Positions 9,440 to 52,139 of a DNA stretch of 64,000 bases are shown here, piece after piece (within the stretch, counting starts at the first letter, position 1; every line of letters begins with the position of its first letter). Location: the NCBI RefSeq assembly GCF_018977255.1, contig NW_024704742.1:32242001-32306000 (forward strand), in the 5' to 3' direction. A model generated the notes under the pieces. That model was given only the letters and a program-made list of their open reading frames with translations, made no database searches and was not told where the DNA came from. Position numbers and translations under genes: made by a program. Origin of the DNA: Callorhinchus milii (taxonomy: Eukaryota).

Positions 9440-9884
9440 TCGTCTTCCCGACGTGAAAGGCGCTCTATAAATGCAATCTTGTTGTTGTTGTGTTGTTGTT
9501 TTCAGGTGATCCTTTGCTGGGTTACAGTTCTATAGGCACCAGCTACCTTCCTGCATCTCCAGTAGTGCTCATTCTTTATGAGTGAGCCTTGAGAGCGAGA
9601 GTGATTGTTGTCAATCCAGACCAATCTTGTGATAAGGCTGACCCTAAAATTACCTGACATCTTGTGACCATGCTCAGGTTCCAGTAGGGGAAGAGAGTCA
9701 GTCAGAAGCATGAACTCTCCCAAGCCAGGGACTCTGAGACCAGTCATAATAACCCAAAGCAACAACAACAACCTGCATTTACATAGCAGCCTTCACATGG
9801 TATTGCATCTCGGAGTAGTTCTTTTTGAGATCAAACTTGTGACATTCCTGAGATTCTATATTAAATGCACTCTATCAAATGCAA

Positions 9885-10088
9885 TAATAATAATAATAAT
9901 CCTTGCATTTGATATAGCGCTTTTCACGTCGGGAGGACGTCCCAAAGCGCTTCACAGAACACATTGTAAAGTGAATTGACTGGATATTTGTGGGCGAACG
10001 CGGCAGCCAATTGCGCACAGCAATGTCCCACAAACAGTCGTAGATTGAAAATGACCAATTTAATTATTGTTAAATTAAATTATTGCAA
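9885..10088 (-). mobile_element. 5'-truncated SINE present only in the left arm, TSD TGCAA
   Basis: Empty site at ~34985 in the right arm; TGCAA duplicated at 9880-9884 and 10084-10088. Confidence 0.88.
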
Positions 10089-10839
10089 GGTTTAGTGCTA
10101 CGGCAGTTGGTACTTTTACCCAGTGGGCCGTTAGAGCATCATCTGACTTCGGTTTTTAAATACCTGTTTTCCATTCTTAGTCATTTGACTGCCAGCTGCT
10201 CCCGAGATCTCAGTTCAGTCACTATACTTTAAAATAAATCCTGTGAAATGCTTTGTGACACCCTCCCGACATGAAAGGCATGATATCAAATGCAAGGATT
10301 ATTATAATTATTTAAACTGTCAGGAGTAGCTTTATCCCTGTAAAGTAATTACAATAGTTATTTTACTTTCAAAGAATTCTGTATCAAAACTTAAAAACAT
10401 TTCTGTCCTCTATTTATTATTTGTCAGCTGAGCTCAGTTGGTAGCAATCTTGTCTCTGTGTCAGAAAGATGTTGCAACTATTTACAAATATACAGTCATT
10501 ACATTTGACAGCAATTATATGTGAAGTGCTTTGAGATGTTTCAGTGTTCTAACCACTATATCAAATGCAAGAATTATTTGGGCGATTATTTATGGTATGA
10601 AAACATTTCCATCCCTATATATTTTTTACAAGTTCAAATTTGTTATATTTTTAGGACGAGCTAGTTTTAGGAAATAAAGTGGGAACTCTTTCCAGTAACC
10701 AAAGGTACATCTATGATAATCGTAGATATCTGTTGGAACTCTGCTCTAAATTTAGAGTTCCTGGGGTTGGATGATGTACTTCCTGCTTGATATATTGGAT
10801 ATATTTAGAATTAGCTTGATGCTGTGATGGGAGGATGTA

Positions 10840-10872
10840 GGGCAGGTCCCTGCAGCGCAGGTCCCTGCAGGG
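10840..10872 (+). repeat. Junction tract (GGGCAGGTCCCTGCA)2 at TCP1 truncation
   Basis: gggcaggtccctgcagcgcaggtccctgcaggg abuts the exon fragment; mirrored at 34201-34233. Confidence 0.9.
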
Positions 10873-13424
10873 CATTACGCCGTTGTCTGAAGAAAGACCT
10901 CAGACGAATTGCTAAGGCCAGTGGAGGTAAGTGCAGCAATTTTTTTTACTAGGTTACTGTTTTGAATTATATATACTTTCAAACTAGTGATCCCCTGCCT
11001 TATTGGACTCCAGTTATCCGGAATTCCGACCTGGTTGGACGAGGCCCAAAACCAAAAACATTAATTTTATTCTGTGGGCCCAACTCCTAGCGCGGATCAA
11101 TGGTGCACTGAGTAGCCTCTGTCTGTGCTGACATTCATAGTGGCTAGTGATAGCCACTATGACTGACTCAGATTGTTTGAATCCAGCGAGCAGAAAATAG
11201 CTTATTCGCTATCTTCTTAGTCGAAAATTGATCTGATAACTCGTTCTGTAATATGGCATCTTGCATTACAAAGGCCTCCAGCCCGATGCTGTGATTGGTA
11301 GCGGAGGTTGGGTGCCTATGCTCAGATGCATTGCAGGGCTAAGCCGTGGCCTCCTACGCTGTCTTACATCTTATCGTGTGACAGGATAGGGCCAAAAGCC
11401 ACGGAGCAGCTGGGAGGACCTATATCAAACTCGCTACTCCGGATAACTTATTGCTCAGCTCTTTACCCTTGGAGTGACAAGCTATCGAGTTTAATGTCCA
11501 ATATTAATGTCATTCAATTTTGAAAGGTTGGCATTCGGAATCAGCTGGAATTTTCCTAGTGATTCTGACGTCCTCCCGACATGAAAGGCGCTATACAAAT
11601 GTAATTTTGTTGAAGTGTTAAAAGTACGTAAATCAGAAAAGGGTGTCTTGGACTGAGAAACCTATTCTGATGATTTTTACCTGTTTTTGTTTATAGCAAC
11701 TATCTGTTCAACACTTGCAAACTTGGAAGGAGATGAGAGTTTTGATCCCTCTTTAGTGGGCCAAGCTGAGGAGGTGGTTCAAGAAAGGATATGCGATGAT
11801 GAACTGATACTTGTTAAAAAGTAAGAAAAACATGTACAACTTACTGAACTCCCATTTATTTGCTGCCCTGCTAATATCTGTGGCATGAGCAGTTGTACGC
11901 TTGGGATAGAGAATATTCAGCCTTGTGTGACTGAAGACCTTGCTGATGTCTTCTCAGTAATGCATTAGCTGAACATAAAAAATTATCTCCAATGTATACA
12001 GTGTAGTATCTTGTAATGCTACTGTTAGTGTTGCAGAATTGAAAAAGATGTTGGGATTGTAATGGTGTTGAATTTTTTTGATATTGACTGCACAGATGCA
12101 GATTAAATTTGTTGTGCATATAAATATAATCCAAGCAGTTTCCTGATGAAAGTAGAACTGTCACATCTATTCCTGGTTTAAGTCGGCAATGAATATTGTT
12201 TTGCATAACAGTATATAAGCAATAGGTATTGTTCATTCAGGAGCAGTGCACACAAAGTTTGTGATTGAAAAAGGGATCTAGATTCTGATTTCTAAAAGTG
12301 AGGTATAAATTGATGCTGACATTTTAAAATGAGTTTAACCCAACCCTCACAAGTACTATTGTTGTAAAGTTTAATTTGTATTTTTCAGTACAAAGGCCCG
12401 TACTTCTGCATCAATCATTCTGCGAGGAGCAAATGATTTCATGTGTGATGAGATGGAGCGCTCCCTACATGATGCACTCTGTGTTGTGAAGAGAGTGCTT
12501 GAGTCCAAGTCTTTAGTTCCAGGAGGTGGGGCTGTGGAAGCTGCACTCTCCATCTACCTGGAAAACTATGCAACTAGTTTGGTATGGGTTTAATTGTATT
12601 TCAAGATTATTGGGGGAGGGCACTTTTACCGTATGCTTTGAGCTGATTAACCAGGGATTACTGTCCCTATTAATTTGCAGTATTAAAAATTATTTTAAGA
12701 AAATAAGTTAAAAGTACTTCATGTATTTAACTGTTGGTTGTCTTTTTGTTTAGGGATCACGTGAACAACTTGCCACTGCAGAATTTGCCCGGGCCATGTT
12801 GGTTATTCTGGCAGTGAATGAATGCTGCTCAGGATTCTACAGACCTTGTTGCAAAGTTGCGTGCCTTCCACAACGAAGCTCAGGTCAATCCTGATCGCAA
12901 AACTTTGAAATGGTAAAAATTTTATTGTACTGTGGTCTGCAAAAGATTGTGACTTGAGACCCATTGTTGTCTGAATCAGCGATGAAACTAAATTTGAACA
13001 TTGTTGCAATTCATGAGCAATCATTGATTTTTGGTGACCTGGTGCCCCAGATAGCAGTAAAGTGCAAAATTGATTTTCTCCATCTTGTTAAAGTAACTTT
13101 TATGGCTGAGTTGTCAGAATTCAATCGGAAATTATGAATGTTTTACTAATATTGTAGTGACTGGCTATTAAAACAGTGTTAATCAAATTCACATTTTGTT
13201 TGTGCAGGATTGGTCTTGATTTATTGAATGGGAAGCCAAGGGACAACAAACAAGCTGGTGTCTTTGAGCCTACTATGGTTAAAGTCAAGAGTCTGAAGTT
13301 TGCAACAGAAGCTGCTATAACCATCCTGCGAATTGATGATCTCATCAAACTTTACCCAGATGAAAAGCAAGACAAAGGAAAGAGTTACCAAGATGCAGTT
13401 CAAAGTGGAGAGCTTAATGGCTGA
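10872..13424 (+). pseudogene. TCP1: TCP1 (CCT-alpha) 5'-truncated copy, left arm; frameshifted
   Basis: Exons 10872-10926 (partial, ALRRCLKKDLRRIAKASG), 11697-11820, 12389-12581, 12754-12912, 13208-13424 (KSLKFATEAAITILRIDDLIKL), with GT-AG introns. The fourth piece is 159 bp versus 164 bp in the right copy (9-bp deletion plus 4-bp GAAT duplication), giving a frameshift. Confidence 0.93.
11848..11978 (+). ncRNA. SNORA20: H/ACA box snoRNA SNORA20 homologue in TCP1 intron 9 (left copy)
   Basis: CCCATTTATTTGCTGC...GAGCAGTTGTACGCTTGGGATA resembles human ACA20; two hairpins, H box AGAGAA at 11908-11913, ACA at 11973-11975 three nt from the end; TCP1 is the known host gene. Confidence 0.85.
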
Positions 13425-14543
13425 AGCACCTGAGTTCTAAAATCAGCTATTATAATTCATGTTTAACTCTTGGCATCCATCAGGTGCTTCTTGTACTTCT
13501 GTTCTAGATTGAGCAGCTTGTCATACTTGTCTGAAATTCAGTGCCACTTGTTTAGTGCTCTGTTTAATTTACTATGCTTGTTTAGTGCTATTTGGCACAA
13601 ACCGGATTTAAAAGACCTCTTACTTTGTTACCTATAGTCAACTCTTTCAAGTTATTTGTGCAAAATTATTTCCTGTACATTGACAGTTGTGCTTCAAGCT
13701 CCTTCAGAAATAAAATGTGACAGTTGTCAAGTGATCAGCCCATCTATGTAGGGAGCTGTTAAGAGACCACCTTAATTTCATGAATAAACGTTGATGTTGT
13801 GCTTCTGGTCTTTTCAAATCTAATTAATTGTGTATGTTATTTCATTGTGGACATGATTTCTCCCTCACACAAATTCACTGGGGAAAACATTCATTAAAAA
13901 TACTACTGGGGAAGGATGTAATAAGGCACTATATCAAATACAAGGATGATTATTATCTCCCCAAATAAGTAACCTCTCTGATTCTTGGTTGCTGATCTTA
14001 CCATGGGGAATGATAAAATGCTCAAAAGTATTAGGGAGCATTTGTAAATCAATTAAAGCAAAATTAAAATACAATGAATGTTCCCCTGCTTTCTCACATG
14101 TATTCAACCATCTTGCCCTTCTATAAATACTGGCACTTGATGTAATTTGAGAGTCAGTTTACAAGATTCAGCAATGGTACATTGAGCAATTTATTTCATA
14201 AAGAAAAAAATGGTCAATCTGAATTGAGAGATAATAGGAAGGAGTTTATGAATTTTAACAAAAGTATGGATTCCACATACACAATATTACTATGATTTCA
14301 AACTTCAGTACTTTTAATCAAATATTTAAAAGTTACACTAATTTTCAGAACCATTTTATGTGGACTGAAGTTTTGAATAGTTTTAAAACCTACCTACTTT
14401 ACACATTCATTATAAAAACAAAATGCACCTACATTTCATTGGAATCAGGCTGTAACCTCTAAAATAAAAGCTCAATTTTATCCAGTCAGTAGCTTAGCTG
14501 CAGAGTATCTTCAGTTCTTGTAGTAAAATTTAGGTGTAATTTA

Positions 14544-14711
<168 letters not shown>

Positions 14712-15109
14712 CTAGAAAGACAAACACAAAAAATGCATTTTTTTTAAAAAAGAGGGAAAACCTTTTCCCTAATTTTCTCCTTACTCCACTGGCCTGCTTC
14801 AGGTCCCCTGCCTATCCTACCATCAGCAGTCAGGCTTTCAGCCTATCTGCTCTCACTTTGTGGAACTCCAACGAGAGCCCTATCACCTCAACTCTCCCTT
14901 ACCTCCTTCAAGGTCCTCAAAACCTTCCTCTGACCGGTCATCTTCCTGGCCCCCATCCCTCCCGAATCCAACCCCAGCTTGGATGCAAACCCTCGACTGC
15001 AGTGGCTTGGGACATCCTCCCGACATGAAAGGCGCTTTATAAATGCAATTTGTTGTTTTATTACATCCCACATTGACCCATTGGGTGAATCAGGAAGTAA
15101 AAAGGATCA

Positions 15110-15265
<156 letters not shown>

Positions 15266-17751
15266 CTAGAATAAATAGTAAATCTAAGTCATTACCCTTG
15301 AATCTGAAGATGAGGGAATGCACAGTGGGTGAATCATTGGTTGAAAAGAAAACAATCTACTTGACCCTACTTCAGGGGGACACAATTTGACCGCTCCTCA
15401 GTCAATGATATCAGCCATGTGAGGAGTGACCGAGCAGACCTTTTCCAAATGGGAAAGGGAGATACCTGGAGTTGAGCCATGACCCCAGTCTCGTCTCCTG
15501 CAGGTGCTTAAAAAACAATAGCAGAGTCCTGGGGGCAGAATAGCTGCCAATTCTCTCACTTGCAGGATAGCCCATTCCCAAAACAGGACACACCATATAA
15601 AAGTAGAGTTGTGCTAATAAATCAACATGTCTGAGTCTGGTTAAGGCTCACGTTCTCAGCTGCATCGAGAGGACGAGAAAAGTAATTCGGGAAACGTTCT
15701 GTAGCTTCAAACCTTTATACAAATATGTGCATGGCCAAGAGACCGTAGCTATGCATAATGATGGCTATCAAGTAACATGCTACTTTACATTTACGTCCGT
15801 TCTATGAGCTTGCACAGCTTTGGTTCACACATTCACACCCTCCAAGGTGGTTTTAGGATAACACACACCTTCCTGGCTTCTGTTAGGCCAGTCATCACAG
15901 TGTAAAAGTACTGCCCTCGGGTGACTTTGCTTATCTGTCACCACAGAGGATAATTTTAAAGATATATTGTTGCTCTAAAAAGGTTAAAAGCTTGAGCTTC
16001 CAAGGAATTCAACCACAGAATCTTTTGGTCTTAAGTTGGCTGAGCCATGTAGGATGCCTGGGTCTCCACCAAGAATAGTATGTTTCTATTCGCGAGGATG
16101 TTTAAAGTGCTTCACAACTATGAAGTGTGTAGTGACTGTGTATTTTGTAGGAGCATCTTTAGTCAACAGTCATGTTCCCTTTACAGTTCAGAACAGAATT
16201 AACCTCCTCCATATTTTGAACTTCAGAAAGGATTCAGGTTTGTTCCAGTAAATTTGTTCACATTTTTCCAATCATCGATGAGCACCTCCACAGCTGAGGT
16301 AGTTAATACACGACTGTGTCTTGGAGGCTGGGAACAGGCACTTTGGATTGCAATCTGAGCTCAAACACATTTTGCCCATTATTTCAGTATCTAATTTTAA
16401 GAAATGGTTACAATACATGATTAAATAGAAACAAAAAGAACATTTTCTATTCAAATGACGCCCCCCATTTTTAATCAGAACAATACTATCTTATAAATTT
16501 ATCAAACCCTGCATATAGATTGCTCCATTCCCAAGCTGCTCTCTTTGAGCACTTGGTTGACAAAGGCACTGCCTGGCGTTGAACTGAGACTTGGAAGACC
16601 CAGATTTGTGCCAGGTTACCTGGTCTCAGCTTGGCAGCAGATGGGATGTTACAATTAGTTTGTATAAGTAGGAGGAAAAATACAGCCAGTGTTCCCACTT
16701 CTTATCACATTCAATGGTCCTGGCTGGAAGGTGCTTGTGTGTGGACAGGAAGAGACTTGTCTGTGATATTCCATCTCCTCTCATGGTCAAACAGCCCAGT
16801 GACCCTTTACCACTCGGATTCACACATGAAGTACGGCCACTTTAATGAGATACTGGAGGGCAGCTGGTAGCCTTAGAACTAAACACCACAGATCCTCAGA
16901 GAGGTTAGAAAACAGAGGGAAATGCAATTAATTTCCAGTTCTTAAATGCAAACCTTGTATTTATTCAGTGACAGTTCTTACCTGTTACACCCACGTGGTA
17001 GTTATAAAAGGCGTCCATTAGGCCATCACACAGAATGGTATCCTGAAGGAACATATCTCCTACTTTGACCCCAACTCGCATTGGAACCACATGTGGAGCC
17101 TGTGATTAAAAGAAGCAGGTTTTAGCTAAGTGTACTTGCTGTGTACTGGGACTCCACATGCAACAAGATCTGGCTGGAGAAAAGGAAGAACTTGCATTTG
17201 TATAATGCCTTATTTTGTGGACCACTGGCACCAGTATCGGTGAAAGAGGGAGCTCTTCCATCAGGATGTCATTGAACATATTCAAGACTGAGATTGATTT
17301 TGAAAAACTAAAGGGATTAAGGGATATGAGGATAGGGCGGGTAACTGGAATTAGGTTAGAAGATCAGCCATGGTCTTATTAAATGGCGGGGCAGGCTTGA
17401 GGGGCCGAATAGCCTACTCCTGCTCCTATTTCTTATGTTTTTAATGTTGACAAGACAAAGGCTTCCCTGCTTGGCTCCCGTCAGCATCTCCGCACTTCAG
17501 GCATTGGCTCACGTCAGCTCACGGAGACAGTACAGAATATCAAATCAACCATTTATTCAAACCTCATCTTCAACCTTTCATCTGTGGGGTCTGATCAAGT
17601 TGACGTTCTTCCATCTTCACAACACTGACTGCCAACTTCAGCCACAGCCCCCCTTTCCCCACCCCCAGCCACCCTTAACAGCATCTTTTGCCCTATTATT
17701 ATGATTATTATTTATTATTATTATTTCTCAAATCCCTCAACCTATCTCCCC

Positions 17752-17999
17752 GGCAGGGGCTGGTGGGGGGGGGGCAGGGGCAGGGAGGGGGGGTAGGGGG
17801 CTGCAGGGAAGGGGAAGGGGCTGGGGGGCAGGGGGCGCAGGGGGGGGGCAGGGGGTGCAGGGCGTGGTCAGGGGCTGGGGGTGGGCAGGTGCAAGGGGGG
17901 GCAGGGGGCTGGGGGGGGCAGGGGGCTGGGGGGGCAGGGGGCTGGGGGGGCAGGGGGTGCAGGAGGGGGCAGGGGCCTGGGGGGGGGGGGGGGGGGGGC
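17752..17999. repeat. G-rich GGGGCAGGGGGCT repeat (mirror 25728-26084)
   Basis: Many G3+ runs; length differs between arms. Confidence 0.9.
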
Positions 18000-18106
18000 G
18001 CTGTGGTGATGGTAATAGTGATGGTGAAGGCACAAACAGCTTCAATTATCCTTCAGCTGTTTGCAGGAAATCCGCCTCCAGAGCAGCGCCTCTACACACA
18101 CACACA

Positions 18107-18315
18107 CCCCCAGTGTCCGGGGGTCAACCCCAGTGTCCGGGGGTCCCCCCCAGTGTCCGGGGGTCCCCCCCAGTGTCCGGGGGTCCCCCCCAGTGTCCGG
18201 GGGTCCCCCCCCAGTGTCCGGGGGTCCCCCCCCAGTGTCCGGGGGTCCCCCCCCAGTGTCCGGGGGTCCCCCCCCAGTGTCCGGGGGTCCCCCCCAGTGT
18301 CCGGGGGTCCCCCCC
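18107..18315. repeat. 20-21 bp minisatellite CCCCAGTGTCCGGGGGT(CC/CAA) in ACAT2 intron 1 (mirror 25374-25621)
   Basis: Directly visible; unit number and variant order differ between arms. Confidence 0.92.
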
Positions 18316-18450
18316 GCTGTCGGGCTGTGGCGCTGCTCTCTCTGTGTTACCTATTGGGGTTCGCGCTGCGGACAGGAGGCGGGGGGGGGGGGGGGGCACC
18401 AGGCAATCCGCCCCGCCCCGCCCGCCCTCCCTGCCAGTCACCCCACCCCT

Positions 18451-18468
18451 GGGCCGGTCCCTGCAAGG
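18451..18468 (+). repeat. Single junction unit between ACAT2 promoter and L2 fragment
   Basis: gggccggtccctgcaagg; mirrored at 25184-25201. Confidence 0.85.
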
Positions 18469-18469
18469 A

Positions 18470-20592
18470 AAAAATTTCCCCACCACTCTCGCCCCCCACC
18501 CCCCATCCCGCTCGGCTGCTTTGGAGTCATCTGAACTTCTTCCCCTCTTGGCTTCCTCCCACAATGACCTATCCTCCTCGGTCACTGTTCTCCACAGCTC
18601 CCTCTCCTCCACTTTCGATTCCCCTACTCCCCTCTCTTCCCGAACCATCTCCTATTCAGATAAGTCACCATGGTACACCAGCCACCTCCACTTCTTGAAG
18701 ACAAGTGCATGCCGCTGAGAGCACCGGGCTTAACTCAAACTTAATGATCCATCAGCAGATCTGGCTGGAACTTTTCAAATCCTACCACCTCGCTCTCGCC
18801 CCCTCTAATTCATCTTTCTACTCCAAGACAATCTTGGAGGCTAAGGGCAACCCCAGGCTCCTCGTCTCCATCACCAACCAGCTCATCCGTCCACCCTCTC
18901 ATGCCTCACCCATCCTCACCTCAATGCCAACTGTGAGGCGATGTTGGACTTCCTCAAATCCAAGGTTGATGGGATCCACCCAGCTGCCTTTGCCCTTCCT
19001 TCTGCTACCCCCATCCACATCTCCCCCTCCCGCCCCGGCCCCTACCCATCCCTCCCTCCACACCTTTGAACCTGTCTCCCACTCCTCTCTCATCGCCACT
19101 ATAACCACCATGAAACCGACCACCTGCTCCCTCGACCCCATCCCTACCCCTCTCCTTCCCTCCCAGCTACATCTTCTTGCCCCTCTACTCACAGACATCA
19201 TAAGCCTCTCCCTGTCCACTGGTACTGTTCCCACCCCATTCAAAACCGTCGTCATGACTCCTATCCTCAAAAACCATCCCTGGACCCATCTGTGTTCTCA
19301 AACTACCGCCCCAAACTCCTTTTCCTCTTCAGTATCCAGGAATGAGTTGTTGCTTCCCAGCTTCTATCCGTCCTCTCCCGCCACTCTATTCACGAGCCAC
19401 TCAAATTAGTTTTCTATGCAGCCCACAGCACAGAAACAGCCCTGGTCAAAGTGACAAATAACATTCTGTCCATCTGCGTCCAAGGCTCCTTCTGCCCCTC
19501 GTCCTTCTTGATCTCTCTGCTGCCTTCAACACCGTTGACCACTCTATCCTCATCCACCACCTCTCCTCTCACCTCAACCTTCATGGCTCTGTCCTTGACT
19601 GGTTCAGATCGTACCTCTCACACTGCCTCCACTTCATCTCCACAAACGGTTTCGCCTCTAGCCCCTGCACCGTCTCGTGCGAGGTTTCTCAGGGCTCTGT
19701 CCTTGGTCCCCTCCTCTTCAATATCCATATGCTCCCTCTTGGTGACATCATCCACAGACATGGGATCAATTTCCACATTTATGCAGATGACACCCAACTC
19801 TACCTCTCTGCCTCCACCCTTGACTCCAGGACCACTGCTTTCCTGACAGAATGTCTGGATGAGAGCTAACTTTCTTCAGTTGAATGTCTCCTGATTGGCA
19901 CCTCAGGCTCTGACAGCATCACCATCCATGGTTGCACATTCCACCTTACTAAGCCAGGCCGGAACTTTGATGTCTTGTTTGACCCTCAACTATCCTTTCT
20001 ACCCCACATCTGTGCCATGACCCTCTCTGCCTTCCCCCACCTCCGCAACATCGGCCAACTTCATCACTGTCTCACACTGTCTAACTCCTTGCTTGTCGGC
20101 CTCTAACTCTGCAGCCTGTGTCCGCTCCTGCATTAAGCTCCGTGACCCTATCATCCCCGACTCCACTGGCTTCCCATCACACAGAGGATACAGTTCAAGA
20201 TCCTGGTCCTCACCTTCAAAGCCATCCATGGTCTTGCTCCCCTACCTCTGTGACTTCCTAACCCCCTACCATCCTGCCCGCTCCCTCTGTTTAGCGGGCT
20301 CTGGCCGCTTCACATCCCCCACCTCATGCGCCCCACCATTGGCGGGTGATTCTTCTGCTACTCTGGAACTCCACCCCGCAATCCCTCCACCTTGCCAAAT
20401 CCCTTGCCTCCTTCAAGACACATCTCAAGACCCTCCTCTTCGACCTTGCTTTCAATCACCATGCTTCGCCCCCGCCCTCCATCCTCCCCAATCCCGACCT
20501 CCAGCTCGGGTCCGAAACTCTGACTGTCCAACGCCTTGGAGTGTCCTCCTGACGTGAAAGGCACTATACAAATGTAATTTTGTTGTTGTTGT
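18470..20592 (+). mobile_element. L2-clade LINE ORF2 remnant with 3' tail (mirror 23057-25183, minus)
   Basis: TCSLDPIPT, LLDLSAAFNTVDH, SQGSVLGPLLF and YADDTQLY reverse-transcriptase motifs; frameshifted; (GTT)n tail. Confidence 0.9.
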
Positions 20593-20617
20593 TACCTCCA
20601 AAATCCTGGACTACCCT

Positions 20618-21345
20618 ACAACAACAACAAAAACAAAATTACATGTATAGAGTGCCTTTCATGTTGGGAGGACGTCCCAAGGTGCTGGGCAGTCAGGGGT
20701 CAGGACCTGAGCATGGGGTGAGGGAAGGCAGAGAGGTGGGAGGGCGACCGAAGGCACGTTTGAAGAGGAGGGTCTTGAGACCGGCCTGAAGGAGGCAAGG
20801 GAGGAAGCGAGGTGAAGGAACCGTGGGATGGTGTTCTAGAGTGTGGGGGCAGAGAGGCTTAAAACCCGGCCACCGATGGTAGGGCAGGTCGGGTGGGAGA
20901 CATGGAGCAGGCCAGAACCTGCTGAGCGGAGGAGCGGGCAGGTTGGTAGGGAGTCAGCAGGTCAGAGAGGTAGGAGGGGGCAAGGCCATGGATGGCCTTG
21001 AAAGTGAGGTCAAGGATCTTGAACTCGATCCTCTGAGGGATGGGGAGCCAGTGGAGTCGAGCGAGGGTGGGAGTGATGGGGTCATGGAGCCTGGTGCGTG
21101 AGAGTACACGCATTTTGGATGATCTGCAGCTTGTGAAGGGAAGAGTTGGGAAGGCCGATGAGGAGGGAGTTCCCATAATCGAGCCTTGATGTGATGAATG
21201 CATGGATAAGGATTTAGACAGCCTGAGGGGTGAGGCAGTGGCGGAGTCTGGCAATGTTGCAGAGGTGGTGGTAGGCAGTGGATGTGGGGGAGAAAGGACA
21301 GTTCACGGTCAAACAAGACACCCAGGTTCCTGATTGTCATAGTGA
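20618..21345 (-). mobile_element. L2 3' fragment, tail-to-tail with the previous element
   Basis: RNLGVLFD, HITP-like LARLHWLPIPQRIEFKI; mirror at 22307-23033 (+). Confidence 0.88.
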
Positions 21346-21445
21346 GGTTACCCTAGAACTTCATCCTTCTCACTTTAACTTCTGTGGGAAAGCTTTTTGA
21401 CAAGTAGAAAGAAAAAAAATATATAGATTCAAGGACCATTGCAAT

Positions 21446-23033: not shown

Positions 23034-23056
23034 AGGGTAGTCCAGGATTTTGGAGG

Positions 23057-25183
23057 TAACAACAACAACAAAATTACATTTGTATAGTGCCTTTCACGTC
23101 AGGAGGACACTCCAAGGCGTTGGACAGTCAGAGTTTCGGACCCGAGCTGGAGGTCGGGATTGGGGAGGATGGAGGGCGGGGGCGAAGCATGGTGATTGAA
23201 AGCAAGGTCGAAGAGGAGGGTCTTGAGATGTGTCTTGAAGGAGGCAAGGGATTTGGCAAGGTGGAGGGATTGCGGGGTGGAGTTCCAGAGTAGCAGAAGA
23301 ATCACCCGCCAATGGTGGGGCGCATGAGGTGGGGATGTGAAGCCGGCCAGAGCCCGCTAAACAGAGGGAGCGGGCAGGATGGTAGGGGGTTAGGAAGTCA
23401 CAGAGGTAGGGGGAGCAAGACCATGGATGGCTTTGAAGGTGAGGACCAGGATCTTGAACTGTATCCTCTGTGTGATGGGAAGCCAGTGGAGTCGGGGATG
23501 ATAGGGTCACGGAGCTTAATGCAGGAGCGGACACAGGCTGCAGAGTTAGAGGCCGACAAGCAAGGAGTTAGACAGTGTGAGACAGTGATGAAGTTGGCCG
23601 ATGTTGCGGAGGTGGGGGAAGGCAGAGAGGGTCATGGCACAGATGTGGGGTAGAAAGGATAGTTGAGGGTCAAACAAGACATCAAAGTTCCGGCCTGGCT
23701 TAGTAAGGTGGAATGTGCAACCATGGATGGTGATGCTGTCAGAGCCTGAGGTGCCAATCAGGAGACATTCAACTGAAGAAAGTTAGCTCTCATCCAGACA
23801 TTCTGTCAGGAAAGCAGTGGTCCTGGAGTCAAGGGTGGAGGCAGAGAGGTAGAGTTGGGTGTCATCTGCATAAATGTGGAAATTGATCCCATGTCTGTGG
23901 ATGATGTCACCAAGAGGGAGCATATGGATATTGAAGAGGAGGGGACCAAGGACAGAGCCCTGAGAAACCTCGCACGAGACGGTGCAGGGGCTAGAGGCGA
24001 AACCGTTTGTGGAGATGAAGTGGAGGCAGTGTGAGAGGTACGATCTGAACCAGTCAAGGACAGAGCCATGAAGGTTGAGGTGAGAGGAGAGGTGGTGGAT
24101 GAGGATAGAGTGGTCAACGGTGTTGAAGGCAGCAGAGAGATCAAGAAGGACGAGGGGGCAGAAGGAGCCTTGGACGCAGATGGACAGAATGTTATTTGTC
24201 ACTTTGACCAGGGCTGTTTCTGTGCTGTGGGCTGCATAGAAAACTAATTTGAGTGGCTCGTGAATAGAGTGGCGGGAGAGGACGGATAGAAGCTGGGAAG
24301 CAACAACTCATTCCTGGATACTGAAGAGGAAAAGGAGTTTGGGGCGGTAGTTTGAGAACACAGATGGGTCCAGGGATGGTTTTTGAGGATAGGAGTCATG
24401 ACGACGGTTTTGAATGGGGTGGGAACAGTACCAGTGGACAGGGAGAGGCTTATGATGTCTGTGAGTAGAGGGGCAAGAAGATGTAGCTGGGAGGGAAGGA
24501 GAGGGGTAGGGATGGGGTCGAGGGAGCAGGTGGTCGGTTTCATGGTGGTTATAGTGGCGATGAGAGAGGAGTGGGAGACAGGTTCAAAGGTGTGGAGGGA
24601 GGGATGGGTAGGGGCCGGGGCGGGAGGGGGAGATGGGGATGGGGGTAGCAGAAGGAAGGGCAAAGGCAGCTGGGTGGATCCCATCAACCTTGGATTTCAG
24701 GAAGTCCAACATCGCCTCACAGTTGGCATTGAGGTGAGGATGGGTGAGGCATGAGAGGGTGGACGGATGAGCTGGTTGGTGATGGAGACGAGGAGCCTGG
24801 GGTTGCCCTTAGCCTCCAAGATTGTCTTGGAGTAGAAAGATGAATTAGAGGGGGCGAGAGCGAGGTGGTAGGATTTGAAAAGTTCCAGCCAGATCTGCTG
24901 ATGGATCATTAAGTTTGATTTAAGCCCGGTGCTCTCAGCGGCATGCACTTGTCTTCAAGAAGTGGAGGTGGCTGGTGTACCATGGTGACTTATCTGAATA
25001 GGAGATGGTTCGGGAAGAGAGGGGAGTAGGGGAATCGAAAGTGGAGGAGAGGGAGCTGTGGAGAACAGTGACCGAGGAGGATAGGTCATTGTGGGAGGAA
25101 GCCAAGAGGGGAAGAAGTTCAGATGACTCCAAAGCAGCCGAGCGGGATGGGGGTGGGGGGCGAGAGTGGTGGGGAAATTTTTT
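23057..25183 (-). mobile_element. L2-clade LINE remnant (right-arm copy)
   Basis: ORF 23783-24202 carries DLSAAF, QGSVLGPLLF and YADDTQLY. Confidence 0.9.
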
Positions 25184-25201
25184 CCTTGCAGGGACCGGCC
25201 C

Positions 25202-25286
25202 AGGGGTGGGGTGACTGGCAGGGAGGGCGGGGCGGGGCGAATTGCCTGGTGCCCCCCCCCCCGCCTCCTGCACGCGGTGCAGCGCC
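25202..25286 (+). promoter_or_regulatory. CpG-rich proximal promoter/5'UTR of ACAT2 with GC boxes
   Basis: GGGCGGGGCGGGGCG (Sp1-type) directly upstream of exon 1; mirrored at ~18373-18450. Confidence 0.55.
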
Positions 25287-25338
25287 GTGAGTCGGAGAGA
25301 CGCTGTTGTGATCCTCTCCGCAGCGCGAACCCCAATAG
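25287..25338 (+). CDS. ACAT2: ACAT2 exon 1 coding part
   Basis: Thiolase N-terminal motif VVILSAARTPIG, phase-1 GT donor, preceded by GCC-GTG in Kozak-like position. Confidence 0.8.
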
Positions 25339-26723
25339 GTAACACAGAGAGAGCAGCGCCACAGCCCGACAGCGGGGGGGACCCCCGGACACTGGGGGGG
25401 ACCCCCGGACACTGGGGGGGACCCCCGGACACTGGGGGATTGACCCCCGGACACTGGGGGATTGACCCCCGGACACTGGGGGATTGACCCCCGGACACTG
25501 GGGACCCCCGGACACTGGGGGAGACCCCCGGACACTGGGGGGGACCCCCGGACACTGGGGGGGACCCCCGGACACTGGGGTTGACCCCCGGACACTGGGG
25601 TTGACCCCCGGACACTGGGGGTGTGTGTGTGTGTAGAGGCGCTGCTCTGGAGGCGGATTTCCTGCAAACAGCTGAAGGATAATTGAAGCTGTTTGTGCCT
25701 TCACCATCACTATTACCATCACCACAGCGCCCCCCCCCCCCCCCCCCCAGCCCCTGCCCCCCCCTGCACCCCCTGCCCCCCCCAGCCCCCTGCCCCCCCC
25801 AGCCCCCTGCCCCCCCACCCCAGCCCCCTGCCCCCCCCCAGCCCCCTGCCCCCCCCCAGCCCCCTGCCCCCCCCCCAGCCCCCTGCCCCCCCCCCAGCCC
25901 CCCCCCCCCTGCCCCCCCAGCCCCTGCCCCCCCCTGCACCCTGCCCACCCCCAGCCCCTGCCACCCCCTGCACCCCCTGCCCCCCCAGCCCCTGCCCCCC
26001 CCTGCCCCCCTGCCCCCCCAGCCCCTGCCCCCCCTGCAGCCCCTGCCCCCCCCGCCCCTGCCGCCCCCCCCACCCAGCCCCTGCCGGGGAGATAGGTTGA
26101 GGGATTGGGGAAATAATAATAATAAATAATAATAATAGGGCAAAAGGTGCTGTTAAGCGTGGCTGGGGGTGGGGAAAGGGGGGCTGTGGCTGAAGTTGGC
26201 AGTCAGTGTTGTGAAGATGGAAGAACGTCAACTTGATAAGACCCCAGATGAAAGGTTGAAGATGAGGTTTGAATAAATGGTTGATTCGATATTCTGTACT
26301 GTCTCCGTGAGCTGACGTGAGCCAATGCCTGAAGTGCGGAGATGCTGACGGGAGCCAAGCAGGAAAGCCTTTGTCTTGTCAACATTAAAAACATAAGAAA
26401 TAGGAGCAGGAGTAGGCCATTCGGCCCCTCAAGCCTGCCCCGCCATTTAATAAGACCATGGCTGATCTTCTAACCTAATTCCAGTTACCCGCCCTATCCC
26501 CATATCCCTTAATCCCTTTAGTTTTTAAAAATCAATCTCAGTCTTGAATATGTTCAATGACATCCTGATGGAAGAGCTCCCTCTTTCACCAATACTGGTG
26601 CCAGTGGTCCACAAAATAAGGCATTATACAAATGCAAGTTCTTCCTTTTCTCCAGCCAGATCTTGTTGCATGTGGAGTCCCAGTACACAGCAAGTACACT
26701 TAGCTAAAACCTGCTTCTTTTAA

Positions 26724-26861
<138 letters not shown>

Positions 26862-28084
26862 TGAATAAATACAAGGTTTGCATTTAAGTACTGGAAATTA
26901 ATTGCATTTCCCTCTGTTTTCTAACCTCTCTGAGGATCTGTGGCGTTTAGTTCTAAGGCTACCAGCTGCCCTCCAGTATCTCATTAAAGTGGCCGTACTT
27001 CATGTGTGAATCCGAGTGGTAAAGGGTCACTGGGCTGTTTGACCATGAGAGGAGATGGAATATCACAGGCAAGTCTCTTCCTGTCCACACACAAGCACCT
27101 TCCAGCCAGGACCATTGAATGTGATAAGAAGTGGGAACACTGGCTGTATTTTTCCTCCTACTTATACAAACTAATTGTAACATCCCATCTGCTGCCAAGC
27201 TGACACCAGGTAACCTGGCACAAATCTGTGTCTTCCAAGTCTCAGTTCAACGCCAGGCAGTGCCTTTGTCAACCAAGTGCTCAAAGAGAGCAGCTTGGGA
27301 ATGGAGCAATCTATATGCAGGGTTTGATAAATTTATAAGATAGTATTGTTCTGATTAAAAATGGGGGGCGTTATTTGAATAGAAAAAGTTCTTTTTGTTT
27401 CTATTTAATCATGTATTGTAACTATTTCTTAAAATTAGATACTGAAATAATGGGCACAATGTGTTTGAGCTCAGATTGCAATCCAAAGTGCCTGTTCCCA
27501 GCCTCCAAGACACAGTCGTGTATTAACTACCTCAGCTGTGGAGGTGCTCATCGATGATTGGAAAAATGTGAACAAATTTACTGGAACAAACCTGAATCCT
27601 TTCTGAAGTTCAAAATATGGAGGAGGTTAATTCTGTTCTGAACTGTAAAGGGAACATGACTGTTGACTAAAGATGCTCCTACAAAATACACAGTCACTAC
27701 ACACTTCATAGTTGTGAAGCACTTTAAACATCCTCGCGAATAGAAACATACTATTCTTGGTGGAGACCCAGGCATCCTACATGGCTCAGCCAACTTAAGA
27801 CCAAAAGATTCTGTGGTTGAATTCCTTGGAAGCTCAAGCTTTTAATCTTTTTAGAGCAACAATGTATCTTTAAAATTATCCTCTGTGGTGACAGATAAGC
27901 AAAGTCACCCGAGGGCAGTACTTTTACACTGTGATGACTGGCCTAAAACCACCTTGGAGGGTGTGAATGTGTGAACCAAAGCTGTGCAAGCTCATAGAAC
28001 GGACGTAGATGTAAAGTAGCATGTTACTTGATAGCCATCATTATGTATAGCTACGGTCTCTTGGCCATGCACATATTTATATAA

Positions 28085-28357
<273 letters not shown>

Positions 28358-28961
28358 TAGGAGAAGGTTTCAGAAAGTTGCATATTCTAAGCTTTTTCAA
28401 GCCTCAAAAACAAATGTCATAGAGGGGACCTCTATAGAGGTATATAAGATGCTGAATGAGATTGAGAAAGTAAACCTACAATAATATATTCAGATATACC
28501 AAGCCAGCAGAAAACAAGGTACAGGTTCAGAGTTGTAAAGGACATTATTTAGGACACACAACAAGAAGTGTTTCTTTACACGTTGCTGCAACTGCAGTAG
28601 ATTACCAGGAGGGATGGCAGAAGCTAGGTTGCTGGACACTTTTTAAAAAAAAACTATGCGGTAATGAGAGATGATAGCATGGATATTCTGGAAGGCTCAG
28701 ATTGAATAGGCCGAAAGGTTTTATTTATCCAAACCTCTTTTGTGATCTTATGTCATCCAGTCTGCCCTAAACCCTATGGGCTTGCAAGAGGTCTTCCAAA
28801 CTATTTGGCACTCAACCAGACAGAGGCCAACATTATTCACTTCGACTAACATATGTGCCACACTTGTTTTTAAATGTATAACACTTATAATGAAATTAAA
28901 ATTTTATTTGGTACTATTGTGTCGCCTCGAATTGCTACATTTTAATTAGGAGCCTTAATAA

Positions 28962-29141
<180 letters not shown>

Positions 29142-29144
29142 TAA

Positions 29145-29423
<279 letters not shown>

Positions 29424-29801
29424 TAACCAGACTCAGACATGTTCATTTATTAGCACAACTCTACTTTTATATGGTGTTTCCTGTTTTGGGAATGGGCTAT
29501 CCTGCAAGTGAGAGAATTGGCAGCTATTCTGCCCCCAGGACTCTGCTATTGTTTTTTAAGCACCTGCAGGAGACGAGACTGGGGTCATGGCTCAACTCCA
29601 GGTATCTCCCTTTCCCATTTGGAAAAGGTCTGCTCGGTCACTCCTCACATGGCTGATATCATTGACTGAGGAGCGGTCAAATTGTGTCCCCCTGAAGTAG
29701 GGTCAAGTAGATTGTTTTCTTTTCAACCAATGATTCACCCACTGTGCATTCCATCATCTTCAGATTCAAGGGTAATGACTTAGATTTACTATTTATTCTA
29801 G

Positions 29802-29957
<156 letters not shown>

Positions 29958-30354
29958 TGATCCTTTTTACTTCCTGATTCACCCAATGGGTCAATGTGGG
30001 ATGTAATAAAACAACAAATTGCATTTATAAAGCGCCTTTCATGTCGGGAGGATGTCCCAAGCCACTGCAGTCGAGGGTTTGCATCCAAGCTGGGGTTGGA
30101 TTCGGGAGGGATGGGGGCCAGGAAGATGACCGGTCAGAGGAAGGTTTTGAGGACCTTGAAGGAGGTAAGGGAGAGTTGAGGTGATAGGGCTCTCGTTGGA
30201 GTTCCACAAAGTGAGAGCAGATAGGCTGAAAGCCTGACTGCTGATGGTAGGATAGGCAGGGGACCTGAAGCAGGCCAGTGGAGTAAGGAGAAAATTAGGG
30301 AAAAGGTTTTCCCTCTTTTTTAAAAAAATGCATTTTTTGTGTTTGTCTTTCTAG

Positions 30355-30525
<171 letters not shown>

Positions 30526-31642
30526 ATTACACCTAAATTTTACTACAAGAACTGAAGATACTCTGCAGCTAAGCTACTGACTGGATAAAATTGAGCTTTT
30601 ATTTTAGAGGTTACAGCCTGATTCCAATGAAATGTAGGTGCATTTTGTTTTTATAATGAATGTGTAAAGTAGGTAGGTTTTAAAACTATTCAAAACTTCA
30701 GTCCACATAAAATGGTTCTGAAAATTAGTGTAACTTTTAAATATTTGATTAAAAGTACTGAAGTTTGAAATCATAGTAATATTGTGTATGTGGAATCCAT
30801 ACTTTTGTTAAAATTCATAAACTCCTTCCTATTATCTCTCAATTCAGATTGACCATTTTTTTCTTTATGAAATAAATTGCTCAATGTACCATTGCTGAAT
30901 CTTGTAAACTGACTCTCAAATTACATCAAGTGCCAGTATTTATAGAAGGGCAAGATGGTTGAATACATGTGAGAAAGCAGGGGAACATTCATTGTATTTT
31001 AATTTTGCTTTAATTGATTTACAAATGCTGCCCTAATACTTTTGAGCATTTTATCATTCCCCATGGTAAGATCAGCAACCAAGAATCAGAGAGGTTACTT
31101 ATTTGGGGAGATAATAATCATCCTTGTATTTGATATAGTGCCTTATTACATCCTTCCCCAGTAGTATTTTTAATTAATGTTTTCCCCAGTGAATTTGTGT
31201 GAGGGAGAAATCATGTCCACAATGAAATAACATACACAATTAATTAGATTTGAAAAGACCAGAAGCACAACATCAACGTTTATTCATGAAATTAAGGTGG
31301 TCTCTTAACAGCTCCCTACATAGATGGGCTGATCACTTGACAACTGTCACATTTTATTTCTGAAGGAGCTTGAAGCACAACTGTCAATGTACAGGAAATA
31401 ATTTTGCACAAATAACTTGAAAGAGTTGACTATAGGTAACAAAGTAAGAGGTCTTTTAAATCCGGTTTGTGCCAAATAGCACTAAACAAGCATAGTAAAT
31501 TAAACAGAGCACTAAACAAGTGGCACTGAATTTCAGACAAGTATGACAAGCTGCTCAATCTAGAACAGAAGTACAAGAAGCACCTGATGGATGCCAAGAG
31601 TTAAACATAAATTATAATAGCTGATTTTAGAACTCAGGTGCT

Positions 31643-31859
31643 TCAGCCATTAAGCTCTCCACTTTGAACTGCATCTTGGTAACTCTTTCCTTTGTCTTGC
31701 TTTTCATCTGGGTAAAGTTTGATGAGATCATCAATTCGCAGGATGGTTATAGCAGCTTCTGTTGCAAACTTCAGACTCTTGACTTTAACCATAGTAGGCT
31801 CAAAGACACCAGCTTGTTTGTTGTCCCTTGGCTTCCCATTCAATAAATCAAGACCAATC
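31643..31859 (-). CDS. TCP1: TCP1 exon 12 (last coding exon)
   Basis: IGLDLLNGKPRDNKQAGVFEPTMVKVKSLKFATEAAITILRIDDLIKLYP...ELNG*; AATAAA signals downstream at 31353-31358 and 31279-31284 (minus strand). Confidence 0.93.
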
Positions 31860-32154
31860 CTGCACAAACAAAATGTGAATTTGATTAACACTGTTTTAAT
31901 AGCCAGTCACTACAATATTAGTAAAACATTCATAATTTCCGATTGAATTCTGACAACTCAGCCATAAAAGTTACTTTAACAAGATGGAGAAAATCAATTT
32001 TGCACTTTACTGCTATCTGGGGCACCAGGTCACCAAAAATCAATGATTGCTCATGAATTGCAACAATGTTCAAATTTAGTTTCATCGCTGATTCAGACAA
32101 CAATGGGTCTCAAGTCACAATCTTTTGCAGACCACAGTACAATAAAATTTTTAC

Positions 32155-32318
32155 CATTTCAAAGTTTTGCGATCAGGATTGACCTGAGCTTCGTTGTGGA
32201 ATGCACGCAACTTTGCAACAAGGTCTGTAGAATCCTGAGCAGCATTCACTGCCAGAGTCTTAGGAATAACCAACATGGCCCGGGCAAATTCTGCAATGGC
32301 AAGTTGTTCACGTGATCC
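32155..32318 (-). CDS. TCP1: TCP1 exon 11
   Basis: GSREQLAIAEFARAMLVIPKTLAVNAAQDSTDLVAKLRAFHNEAQVNPDRKTLKW, 164 bp. Confidence 0.93.
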
Positions 32319-32490
32319 CTAAACAAAAAGACAACCAACAGTTAAATACATGAAGTACTTTTAACTTATTTTCTTAAAATAATTTTTAATACTGCAAATT
32401 AATAGGGACAGTAATCCCTGGTTAATCAGCTCAAAGCATACGGTAAAAGTGCCCTCCCCCAATAATCTTGAAATACAATTAAACCCATAC

Positions 32491-32683
32491 CAAACTAGTT
32501 GCATAGTTTTCCAGGTAGATGGAGAGTGCAGCTTCCACAGCCCCACCTCCTGGAACTAAAGACTTGGACTCAAGCACTCTCTTCACAACACAGAGTGCAT
32601 CATGTAGGGAGCGCTCCATCTCATCACACATGAAATCATTTGCTCCTCGCAGAATGATTGATGCAGAAGTACGGGCCTTTGTA
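32491..32683 (-). CDS. TCP1: TCP1 exon 10
   Basis: TKARTSASIILRGANDFMCDEMERSLHDALCVVKRVLESKSLVPGGGAVEAALSIYLENYATSL, 193 bp. Confidence 0.93.
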
Positions 32684-33093
32684 CTGAAAAATACAAATTA
32701 AACTTTACAACAATAGTACTTGTGAGGGTTGGGTTAAACTCATTTTAAAATGTCAGCATCAATTTATACCTCACTTTTAGAAATCAGAATCTAGATCCCT
32801 TTTTCAATCACAAACTTTGTGTGCACTGCTCCTGAATGAACAATACCTATTGCTTATATACTGTTATGCAAAACAATATTCATTGCCGACTTAAACCAGG
32901 AATAGATGTGACAGTTCTACTTTCATCAGGAAACTGCTTAGATTATATTTATATGCACAACAAATTTAATCTGCATCTGTGCAGTCAATATAAAAAAAAT
33001 TCAACACCATTACAATCCCAACATCTTTTTCAATTCTGCAACACTAACAGTAGCATTACAAGATACTACACTGTATACATTGGAGATAATTTT

Positions 33094-33224
33094 TTATGTT
33101 CAGCTAATGCATTACTGAGAAGACATCAGCAAGGTCTTCAGTCACACAAGGCTGAATATTCTCTATCCCAAGCGTACAACTGCTCATGCCACAGATATTA
33201 GCAGGGCAGCAAATAAATGGGAGT
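33094..33224 (-). ncRNA. SNORA20: SNORA20 homologue (right copy)
   Basis: Exact reverse complement of 11848-11978. Confidence 0.85.
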
Positions 33225-33251
33225 TCAGTAAGTTGTACATGTTTTTCTTAC

Positions 33252-33375
33252 TTTTTAACAAGTATCAGTTCATCATCGCATATCCTTTCTTGAACCACCT
33301 CCTCAGCTTGGCCCACTAAAGAGGGATCAAAACTCTCATCTCCTTCCAAGTTTGCAAGTGTTGAACAGATAGTTG
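33252..33375 (-). CDS. TCP1: TCP1 exon 9
   Basis: TICSTLANLEGDESFDPSLVGQAEEVVQERICDDELILVK, AG/GT flanks, 124 bp. Confidence 0.92.
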
Positions 33376-34146
33376 CTATAAACAAAAACAGGTAAAAATC
33401 ATCAGAATAGGTTTCTCAGTCCAAGACACCCTTTTCTGATTTACGTACTTTTAACACTTCAACAAAATTACATTTGTATAGCGCCTTTCATGTCGGGAGG
33501 ACGTCAGAATCACTAGGAAAATTCCAGCTGATTCCGAATGCCAACCTTTCAAAATTGAATGACATTAATATTGGACATTAAACTCGATAGCTTGTCACTC
33601 CAAGGGTAAAGAGCTGAGCAATAAGTTATCCGGAGTAGCGAGTTTGATATAGGTCCTCCCAGCTGCTCCGTGGCTTTTGGCCCTATCCTGTCACACGATA
33701 AGATGTAAGACAGCGTAGGAGGCCACGGCTTAGCCCCTGCAACGCATCTGAGCATAGGCACCCAACCTCCGCTACCAATCACAGCATCGGGCTGGAGGCC
33801 TTTGTAATGCAAGATGCCATATTACAGAACGAGTTATCAGATCAATTTTCGACTAAGAAGATAGCGAATAAGCTATTTTCTGCTCGCTGGATTCAAACAA
33901 TCTGAGTCAGTCATAGTGGCTATCACTAGCCACTATGAATGTCAGCACAGACAGAGGCTACTCAGTGCACCATTGATCCGCGCTAGGAGTTGGGCCCACA
34001 GAATAAAATTAATGTTTTTGGTTTTGGGCCTCGTCCAACCAGGTCGGAATTCCGGATAACTGGAGTCCAATAAGGCAGGGGATCACTAGTTTGAAAGTAT
34101 ATATAATTCAAAACAGTAACCTAGTAAAAAAAATTGCTGCACTTAC

Positions 34147-34201
34147 CTCCACTGGCCTTAGCAATTCGTCTGAGGTCTTTCTTCAGACAACGGCGTAATG
34201 C
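34147..34201 (-). CDS. TCP1: TCP1 exon 8, 3' fragment
   Basis: ALRRCLKKDLRRIAKASG then a GTAAG donor; the 5' part is replaced by a repeat tract. Confidence 0.85.
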
Positions 34202-35424
34202 CCTGCAGGGACCTGCCCTGCAGGGACCTGCCCTACATCCTCCCATCACAGCATCAAGCTAATTCTAAATATATCCAATATATCAAGCAGGAAGTACATC
34301 ATCCAACCCCAGGAACTCTAAATTTAGAGCAGAGTTCCAACAGATATCTACGATTATCATAGATATACCTTTGGTTACTGGAAAGAGTTCCCACTTTATT
34401 TCCTAAAACTAGTTTGTCCTAAAAATATAATAAATTTGAACTTGTAAAAAATATATAGGGATGGAAATGTTTTCATACCATAAATAATCGCCCAAATAAT
34501 TGTTGCATTTGATATAGTGGTTAGAACACTGAAACATCTCAAAGCACTTCACATATAATTGCTGTCAAATGTAATGACTGTATATTTGTAAATAGTTGCA
34601 ACATCTTTCTGACACAGAGACAAGATTGCTACCAACTGAGCTCAGCTGACAAATAATAAATAGAGGCCAGAAATGTTTTTAAGTTTTGGTACAGAATTCT
34701 TTGAAAGTAAAGTAACTATTGTAATTACTTTACAGGAATAAAGCTACTCCTGAGAGTTTAAATAATTATAATAATCCTTGCATTTGATATCATGCCTTTC
34801 ATGTCGGGAGGTTGTCACAAAGCGTTTCACAGGATTTATTTTAAAGTATAGTGACTGAACTGAGATCTCGAGAGCAGCTGGCAGTCAAATGACAAAGAAT
34901 GGAAAACAGGTATTTAAAAACCGAAGTCAGATGATGCTCTAACGGCCCACTGGGTAAAAGTACCAACTGCCGTAGCATTAAACCTTGCATTTGATATAGT
35001 GCATTTAATATAGAATCTCAGGAATGTCACAAGTTTGATCTCAATAAGAACTACTCCGAGATGCAATACCATGCGAAGGCTGCTATGTAAATGCAGGTTG
35101 TTGTTGTTGCTTTGGGTTATTATGACTGGTCTCAGAGTCCCTGGCTTGGGAGAGTTCATGCTTCTGACTGACTCTCTTCCCCCATTGGAACCTGAGCATG
35201 GTCACAAGATGTCAGGTAATTTTAGGGTCAGCCTTATCACAAGATTGGTCTGGATTGACAACAATCACTCTCGCTCTCAAGGCTCACTCATAAAGAATGA
35301 GCACTAATGGAGATGGAGGAAGGTAACTGGTGCCTATAGAACTGTAACCCAGCAAAGGATCACCTGAAAACAACAAGACAACAACAACAAGATTGCATTT
35401 ATAGAGCGCCTTTCACGTCGGGAA

Positions 35425-35490
35425 GGCCCTTGCAGGGACCGGCCCTTGCAGGGACCGGCCCTTGCAGGGACCGGCCCTTGCAGGGCAGGT
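35425..35490 (-). repeat. Junction tract at outer end of right arm (~4 units)
   Basis: g(gcccttgcagggaccg)x3 gcccttgcagggcaggt. Confidence 0.9.
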
Positions 35491-52131: not shown

Positions 52132-52139
52132 GATCCTCT

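Follow-up and report, generated by a model that had tools for sequence, protein, structure and literature searches.

How does a mirror-image string of host gene fragments, its introns still in place, come to stand in a vertebrate genome? The question is raised by a palindrome of about 26 kb in the elephant shark Callorhinchus milii, which lies in a window of 64,000 nucleotides, the whole stretch of DNA analysed here (contig NW_024704742.1, positions 32,242,001 to 32,306,000, numbered below from its first letter). Each arm, the left one at 9401–21441 and the right one at 22210–35485, holds a segment A, a block of the genes TCP1 and ACAT2 and a segment C, which meet at seams that we call J1 to J4 from the outer end inwards. 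Self-BLAST of the window returned inverted matches between 9394–21441 and 22210–35476, and together with alignment it confirmed that the palindrome described in the initial annotation is real in the sequence, with its ends corrected from 9444 and 35425 to 9401 and 35485; the inter-arm distance, annotated as a spacer of ~770 bp, measures 768 nt. We propose that the palindrome would have arisen as a composite insertion at the DNA level by a transposase, integrase or recombinase using CCCTGCA(A)GGG ends and a 5-bp C(A/C)GGT target, a reading to which we give roughly even chances, because introns are kept, sites stand at all seams in one polarity, the inverted identity ends at the site and a 5-bp repeat flanks the whole. 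The locus is the fossil of a mechanism, with dead cargo genes, and not a working gene.

Seam sites and the flanking repeat

The segments of both arms are joined at a near-palindromic site, CCCTGCA(A)GGG, which is present in one to four copies per seam, with copies separated by a 5-bp core that reads, in arm direction, CCGGT at J1, J3 and J4 and CAGGT at J2. This motif and the flanking 5-bp repeat are features beyond the first sequence reading. All 13 of the 13 matches to GGGCMGGTCCCTGCA in the window, at one mismatch or fewer, sit at seams (mean of 0.00 in 100 shuffles), and the site copies share one polarity along each arm. The single exception among the seams is the right inner one, between spacer and right arm, where a short site-like 8-bp remnant (TCCTGCAA; 22200–22209, minus strand) is all that is present and may be native. 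With zero matches outside the seams, we rejected the motif as part of the L2, CR1, short interspersed element (SINE) or Penelope copies of the window, and inspection ruled out a telomere repeat, since the motif is not TTAGGG-like. The seam-motif 16-mer had 0 matches in viral contigs, 0 in metagenome contigs and 0 in the papers searched, and no description of the pair of end and target was found in the searched literature, which left out Repbase and most subscription papers. An irregular minisatellite of CAGGG, CAAGGG and CAATG words lies 170 bp beyond the left end, at 8912–9225, and has TGCAGGGC in common with the seam motif.

At the outer ends (J1), the left terminal array (9401–9437, plus strand) consists of two CCCTGCAAGGG-CCGGT units followed by CCCTG, and the right terminal array (35425–35485, minus strand) of four CCCTGCAAGGG copies spaced by CCGGT. 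Over 37 bp the left array matches the right end perfectly in inverted orientation; counted inward from 9401 and 35485, the inverted identity is complete for this length, and outward there is none. Directly outside lies the direct repeat CAGGT, at 9396–9400 and 35486–35490 (both on the plus strand), a candidate target-site duplication and the only direct repeat of 1–14 bp at the exact ends of the inverted identity. CAGGT has a frequency of 0.0012 in the flanks, and 2.6% of random pairs show a 5-bp repeat by chance when 2 bp of slack is allowed at each end. Because its orientation opposes that of the right-arm cores, the right CAGGT copy lies outside the array. That the flanking repeat matches the cores hints at a target preference for C(A/C)GGT, drawn from three distinct contexts by a post hoc parse. 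In the host DNA, on the minus strand, a TATA-like word at 35510–35518 lies ~25–30 bp beyond the right end and a strong splice donor at 9270–9275 lies ~125 bp beyond the left end; in this region of low CpG content, a promoter, marked by the former, may have been separated by the insertion from its first exon, marked by the latter.

The inner seams follow the same pattern with variations in copy number. At J2, the left arm (10839–10872, plus strand) has two 15-bp units with the core CAGGT and a perfect palindrome, CCCTGCAGGG, and cuts TCP1 mid-exon, and the right arm (34201–34234, minus strand) has two perfect 15-bp units. Here the site stands in place of the 5' part of a TCP1 exon, and the upstream human TCP1 residues are not encoded there; since J2 interrupts an exon, the site is not native at this seam. 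J3 is a single site copy between the ACAT2 promoter and segment C in the left arm (18451–18468, plus strand), with a counterpart seam in the right arm (25184–25201, minus strand). At J4, the left inner seam (21442–21493, plus strand), a stuttered scar is followed by three site copies, and on the other strand J4 closes a unit that starts at 35485. Beyond it lies an AT-rich spacer (21494–22199, GC 0.34), whose 706 bp have no match anywhere else in the window. Inner and outer seams differ between the arms.

Spacer and seams could also be explained by an ordinary fold-back inverted duplication, or by breakage-fusion of an older segmental duplication, with the motif being a fragile minisatellite that happened to lie at the breaks. 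We consider this improbable. Fold-back duplications typically have a unique spacer between the inverted copies, of 766–70,466 bp in human cases (PMC3907307), and the palindrome shares this feature, with a spacer that is single-copy over its 706 bp within the window; the seam site is hairpin-prone, and the remnant at the right inner seam may be native microhomology. A fold-back origin gives no account, however, of why the site lies inside the TCP1 exon and recurs at four different seams, nor of the 5-bp repeat in the flanks. Moreover, fold-back cases accompany terminal deletion or translocation, not clean interstitial insertion, whereas here the host DNA continues on both sides with the 5-bp repeat, and no terminal deletion, translocation or ring adjoins it. 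The sex-chromosome, B-chromosome or breakage-fusion origin put forward in the initial annotation is unsupported; the structure is that of an insertion in interstitial position, with a 5-bp repeat at its flanks.

Divergence between the arms

Global alignment in five blocks gave 68 substitutions in 10,995 aligned columns (0.62%), of which 40 are transitions and 28 transversions; the GC-rich minisatellite stretch was excluded from these counts, and the block-wise alignment was used for them, a MAFFT alignment of the arms having put some gaps wrongly. Divergence is unequal among blocks (chi-square p 6e-16), at ~0.2% in the TCP1 block (7/3523), the stretch from ACAT2 exon 9 to intron 7 (3/1247) and the L2 block (6/2971), and at 1.4–2.0% in the ACAT2 exon-4 block (28/2064) and segment A (24/1190), both of which adjoin large indels. 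Further differences are confined to single arms. The left arm alone carries a 204-bp SINE insertion at ~9880–10083 flanked by a 5-bp TGCAA duplication, a 1268-bp deletion at 15648/15649, a 41-bp deletion, and a 9-bp deletion with a 4-bp duplication, and a TCP1 exon is frameshifted in this arm; a 30-bp deletion is found only in the right arm. These observations bear out the arm-specific indels and the SINE with its target duplication noted at first reading, and also the claim that the palindrome is no single-molecule chimera, which the substitutions, arm-specific indels and unlike seams jointly support: a fold-back read is ruled against because it gives identical arms, yet these arms differ.

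Could the two arms have been joined during assembly? Such an artefact would have placed two haplotypes, or dispersed copies of a 12–13 kb unit, head to head, and we judge it quite improbable. The arm length is close to a common long-read length, and four of the 24 listed sequencing runs, samples of one study that possibly includes the source sample, hold 0.74–0.81 of 85 words sampled from 21400–22250, near the 0.82–0.85 expected if the seams were absent. A polymorphic insertion could also bring the shares below 1, though, and so could a few single-nucleotide polymorphisms, each of which takes away up to 0.038. Three further runs, with shares of 0.11–0.32, were left out of account, and none of the listed runs holding the words was an RNA run. 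The run data show that the spacer exists in these samples, and the word shares are compatible with seams present or absent; the insertion may be polymorphic among animals. Allelic haplotypes would have a flank in common, and since the 3 kb next to each arm have no mutual similarity, a mis-join of haplotypes is unlikely. The artefact is further opposed by the uniqueness of the spacer and the unlike seams on its two sides, and by the matching 5-bp repeats 26 kb apart, which argue for a single event behind both outer seams.

Cargo of the arms and the surrounding DNA

The gene identities first assigned to the cargo were upheld by the best PDB matches, human ACAT2 (E 5e-24) and TCP1 alpha (E 1e-35). 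In other vertebrates the 3' ends of TCP1 and ACAT2 lie next to each other (PMC2151771), and here one native block spans from a TCP1 mid-exon to the ACAT2 promoter. The TCP1 fragment of the left arm (10873–13424, plus strand) holds the last five exons with their introns, the fourth of these being the frameshifted one, and that of the right arm (31643–34200, minus strand) is cut mid-exon at J2 and has its fourth and fifth exons, which were translated directly, in frame. In the left arm, the ACAT2 remnant (14540–18450, minus strand) retains exons 9, 8 and 4, a stub of exon 5, a damaged exon 1 and the promoter, and has suffered the 1268-bp deletion; in the right arm (25202–30526, plus strand) it comprises a GC-box promoter, exon 1, two minisatellites and exons 4–9 with open frames. 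Exon numbers in both genes are those that we take over from the human genes.

The mosaic composition of the arms described in the initial annotation stood, but the GC-rich piece adjoining the L2 block is not a separate segment: translation and position make it most likely the ACAT2 promoter and exon 1, part of the TCP1-ACAT2 block. Its translation gives a thiolase-like N-terminus that ends at a splice donor, with a weak database match (E 0.28), and in the right arm exon 1 lies at 25287–25338 with GTG at the expected position of the start codon. ACAT2 exons 2 and 3 were undetected in plus-strand open reading frames (ORFs) of at least 30 residues between exons 1 and 4, minisatellite frames excluded, and splicing from exon 1 to exon 4 is out of frame, so we rejected a functional short ACAT2. 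Judged by their sequence, the TCP1 and ACAT2 copies are pseudogenic in both arms. Two GC-rich minisatellites with 20-bp and 17-bp units (25374–25621 and 25740–26069) occupy ACAT2 intron 1, near the missing exons 2 and 3, and their mirrors in the left arm (18107–18315 and 17756–17999) differ from them in copy structure. Introns and splice sites are preserved in the cargo, which shows neither the intron loss nor the poly(A) tail of processed pseudogenes; with introns kept, capture would have taken place at the DNA level.

On either side of this block lie segments A and C. Segment A begins within an L2 tail and consists of SINE and L2 pieces and unique DNA; it carries the 204-bp SINE insertion in the left arm (9438–10838) and is without it in the right (34235–35424). 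Segment C is built of two old L2 pieces that are 75–85% like copies in the flanks: in the left arm (18469–21441) a truncated old L2 on the plus strand and a second L2 on the minus strand precede ~90 bp of unique DNA, and the right arm (22210–25183) holds the inverted match.

A further reading is that the palindrome is maintained for a function, as a sex- or B-chromosome amplicon or as a source of endogenous small interfering RNA (siRNA) against TCP1 and ACAT2. Arm-to-arm homogenisation would be in keeping with this, and in maize, inverted composite insertions yield double-stranded RNA and siRNA (10.1101/2020.01.07.897926). We regard such maintenance as very improbable, given that the promoters face outwards, polyadenylation signals block inward read-through and the left arm is decaying; one holocephalan X candidate that has been described measures 500 kb, as a scaffold (PMC12952989). 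The palindrome is unlikely to give rise to a long hairpin RNA, because both ACAT2 promoters point away from the centre, and the TCP1 pieces, which do face inwards, have no promoter and run into AATAAA (at 13709, 13783 and 14463).

Elsewhere in the window, two serpin exons lie on the minus strand at 54252–54446 and 58716–58979 (Pfam E 3e-17 and 2e-28), the former being a first coding exon and the latter a last exon that a SINE interrupts. A scan of minus-strand ORFs of at least 48 residues in 35486–54250 and 1–9400 brought up no other serpin exon, and the serpin genes in the window may also be fragments. A near-perfect 24-bp repeat (55050–55194) stands upstream of the first serpin exon, and a 30-bp tandem repeat of ~34 copies occupies 51109–52131. 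Rfam and ARAGORN gave a single match, outside the palindrome, to a tRNA-Ala(TGC)-like sequence at 47654–47723 (plus strand), which lies beside a young SINE and is possibly a SINE head. A Penelope-like end with a hammerhead motif is located at 63029–63153.

Origin of the palindrome and known mobile systems

If a mobile-element enzyme built the palindrome, segment A, the TCP1-ACAT2 block, segment C and the spacer would have been joined at an earlier stage via end-core-end junctions, giving a parent unit of ~14 kb with inverted sites at both bounds, from 35485 to 21442; the right arm, spacer and J4, which are bounded by inverted sites, make up a candidate for this 14-kb parent. Two like ends, as found on sister chromatids, would then have inserted into one CAGGT target, the near-symmetric site letting two like ends act as a pair, and the copied DNA behind them would have broken and been end-joined in the centre, leaving the stuttered scar and the unique spacer. 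The arrays of 1–4 copies may have grown by slippage between two TGCA words 16 bp apart. Gene conversion from arm to arm would subsequently have held three blocks at ~0.2%, as those by large indels reached 1.4–2.0%; the position of the diverged blocks beside large indels fits such conversion, and different donor copies could also explain it.

Several points weigh against a composite insertion. It is known from a single locus, and no transposase or recombinase domain was found in the 129 ORFs scanned (25 + 14 + 90), a subset of those in the window. There is no element body, the cargo beginning 5–11 bp inside the site, and the parse into ends and core was made after the sequence had been seen. 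CAGGT is also the core variant of J2, so that the left copy of the flanking repeat could be part of the array and only the right copy is informative. The ends fail the test for Transib and for recombination signal sequences, the duplication is 5 bp against the 8 bp of Ac, and published work finds DNA transposons to be especially scarce in the elephant shark (PMC4350176). Finally, the stuttered J4 scar is also compatible with repair synthesis.

Repair is indeed the main rival to composite insertion, although we think it unlikely. A double-strand break with a short stagger would have been mended by successive templated insertions, a polymerase or reverse transcriptase recopying the same short bound template at each switch to give 1–4 units, and both ends copying one donor to give the mirror image. 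This would account for the variation in copy number and phase at the seams and for J4, which grows from short to full units, all ending in CAA(G), as expected of reiterative synthesis; the single polarity at all seams agrees with it as well, and no missing transposase is needed. In cancer genomes, strings of 2–7 templates from distinct regions have been reported (PMC7025897), and the palindrome resembles the templated-insertion bridges and cycles of that study in being a multi-locus string in one host site. However, the available part of the same study describes no shared junction motif for templated insertions, no template for the motif exists among the repeats of the window, and repair filler does not predict that both outer ends start at the same base of the site beside an exact 5-bp repeat. 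For neither templated insertions nor fold-back duplications, as far as these sources were available (PMC7025897, PMC3907307), is a shared junction motif or a terminal inverted repeat described, in contrast to the palindrome.

The composite insertion that we favour has its closest parallel in maize, where transposon ends on sister chromatids insert together into a single target and stretches of re-replicated DNA become joined (PMC4270019; 10.1101/2020.01.07.897926). As in the Ac/Ds composite insertions set out in these reports, the palindrome has transposon-like outer termini, a target-site duplication, copied intron-containing DNA (14–24 kb in maize) and an inverted duplication with an end-joined centre. 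According to the same accounts, the duplications made by Ac measure 8 bp and come with kilobases of transposon, whereas the palindrome has 5 bp, ends of ~11 bp and no element body; its cargo is also multi-locus, its sites recur at internal seams and its host is a vertebrate. With a 5-bp repeat as the only one among lengths 1–14, and no transposase domain in the scanned ORFs, hAT chemistry was not recovered. A model for the internal seams is offered by bacterial copy-out transposition, of which end-spacer-end junctions are known intermediates (PMC7780238).

Other mobile systems share single features. Helitrons are not known to leave a target duplication. Like Pack-MULEs, Helitrons and Drosophila units of transposable elements flanked by foldback elements, as described in PMC6431247, the palindrome brings several intron-bearing host fragments together in one mobile unit, but it is without their long element ends, and one short site marks each seam. 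A 5-bp GC-rich duplication with a target preference recalls Transib and RAG (PMC1131882), whose termini begin with CAC according to that source and not, as here, with CCC. We rejected Transib/RAG ends after finding 4–6 mismatches to the heptamer (4 at both outer ends), 6–9 to the nonamer and none of the latter at 12 or 23 bp. Cryptons share terminal direct repeats of 4–6 bp, and inverted arms about a short asymmetric core with one polarity per seam are a further likeness; they are described as lacking terminal inverted repeats, which the palindrome has (PMC3212892), and recombinase sites combine arms of 11–13 bp with a core of 6–8 bp, against 5 bp here. The ORFs scanned in the window held no tyrosine recombinase. 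The palindrome thus works like a composite insertion and is assigned to no family, since Transib/RAG, Ac/Ds and Crypton were tested and none fits.

What would such an insertion mean for the chimaera? How interspersed segmental duplications that retain introns, and large palindromes too, arise in vertebrate germ lines can seldom be read from their junctions; here each junction is tagged. It is a tentative and rather doubtful proposition that the genome of this chimaera harbours, or once harboured, a mobile system not yet described, with ends of 11-bp near-palindromes and a C(A/C)GGT target, that strings host fragments together and pastes units of 14–26 kb, including mirror-image ones, into new chromosomes. 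If that is true, the site is a searchable tag for each gene fragment the system moved, as GGGC(A/C)GGTCCCTGCA or as CCCTGCA(A)GGG arrays, which makes the question testable by one pattern search of the genome. A tag unique to this locus would point to a well-resolved but one-off rearrangement. Should the tag turn up at further loci, this lineage, reportedly almost devoid of DNA transposons, would have an unrecognised gene-shuffling enzyme, and would provide a vertebrate example of maize-type alternative transposition.

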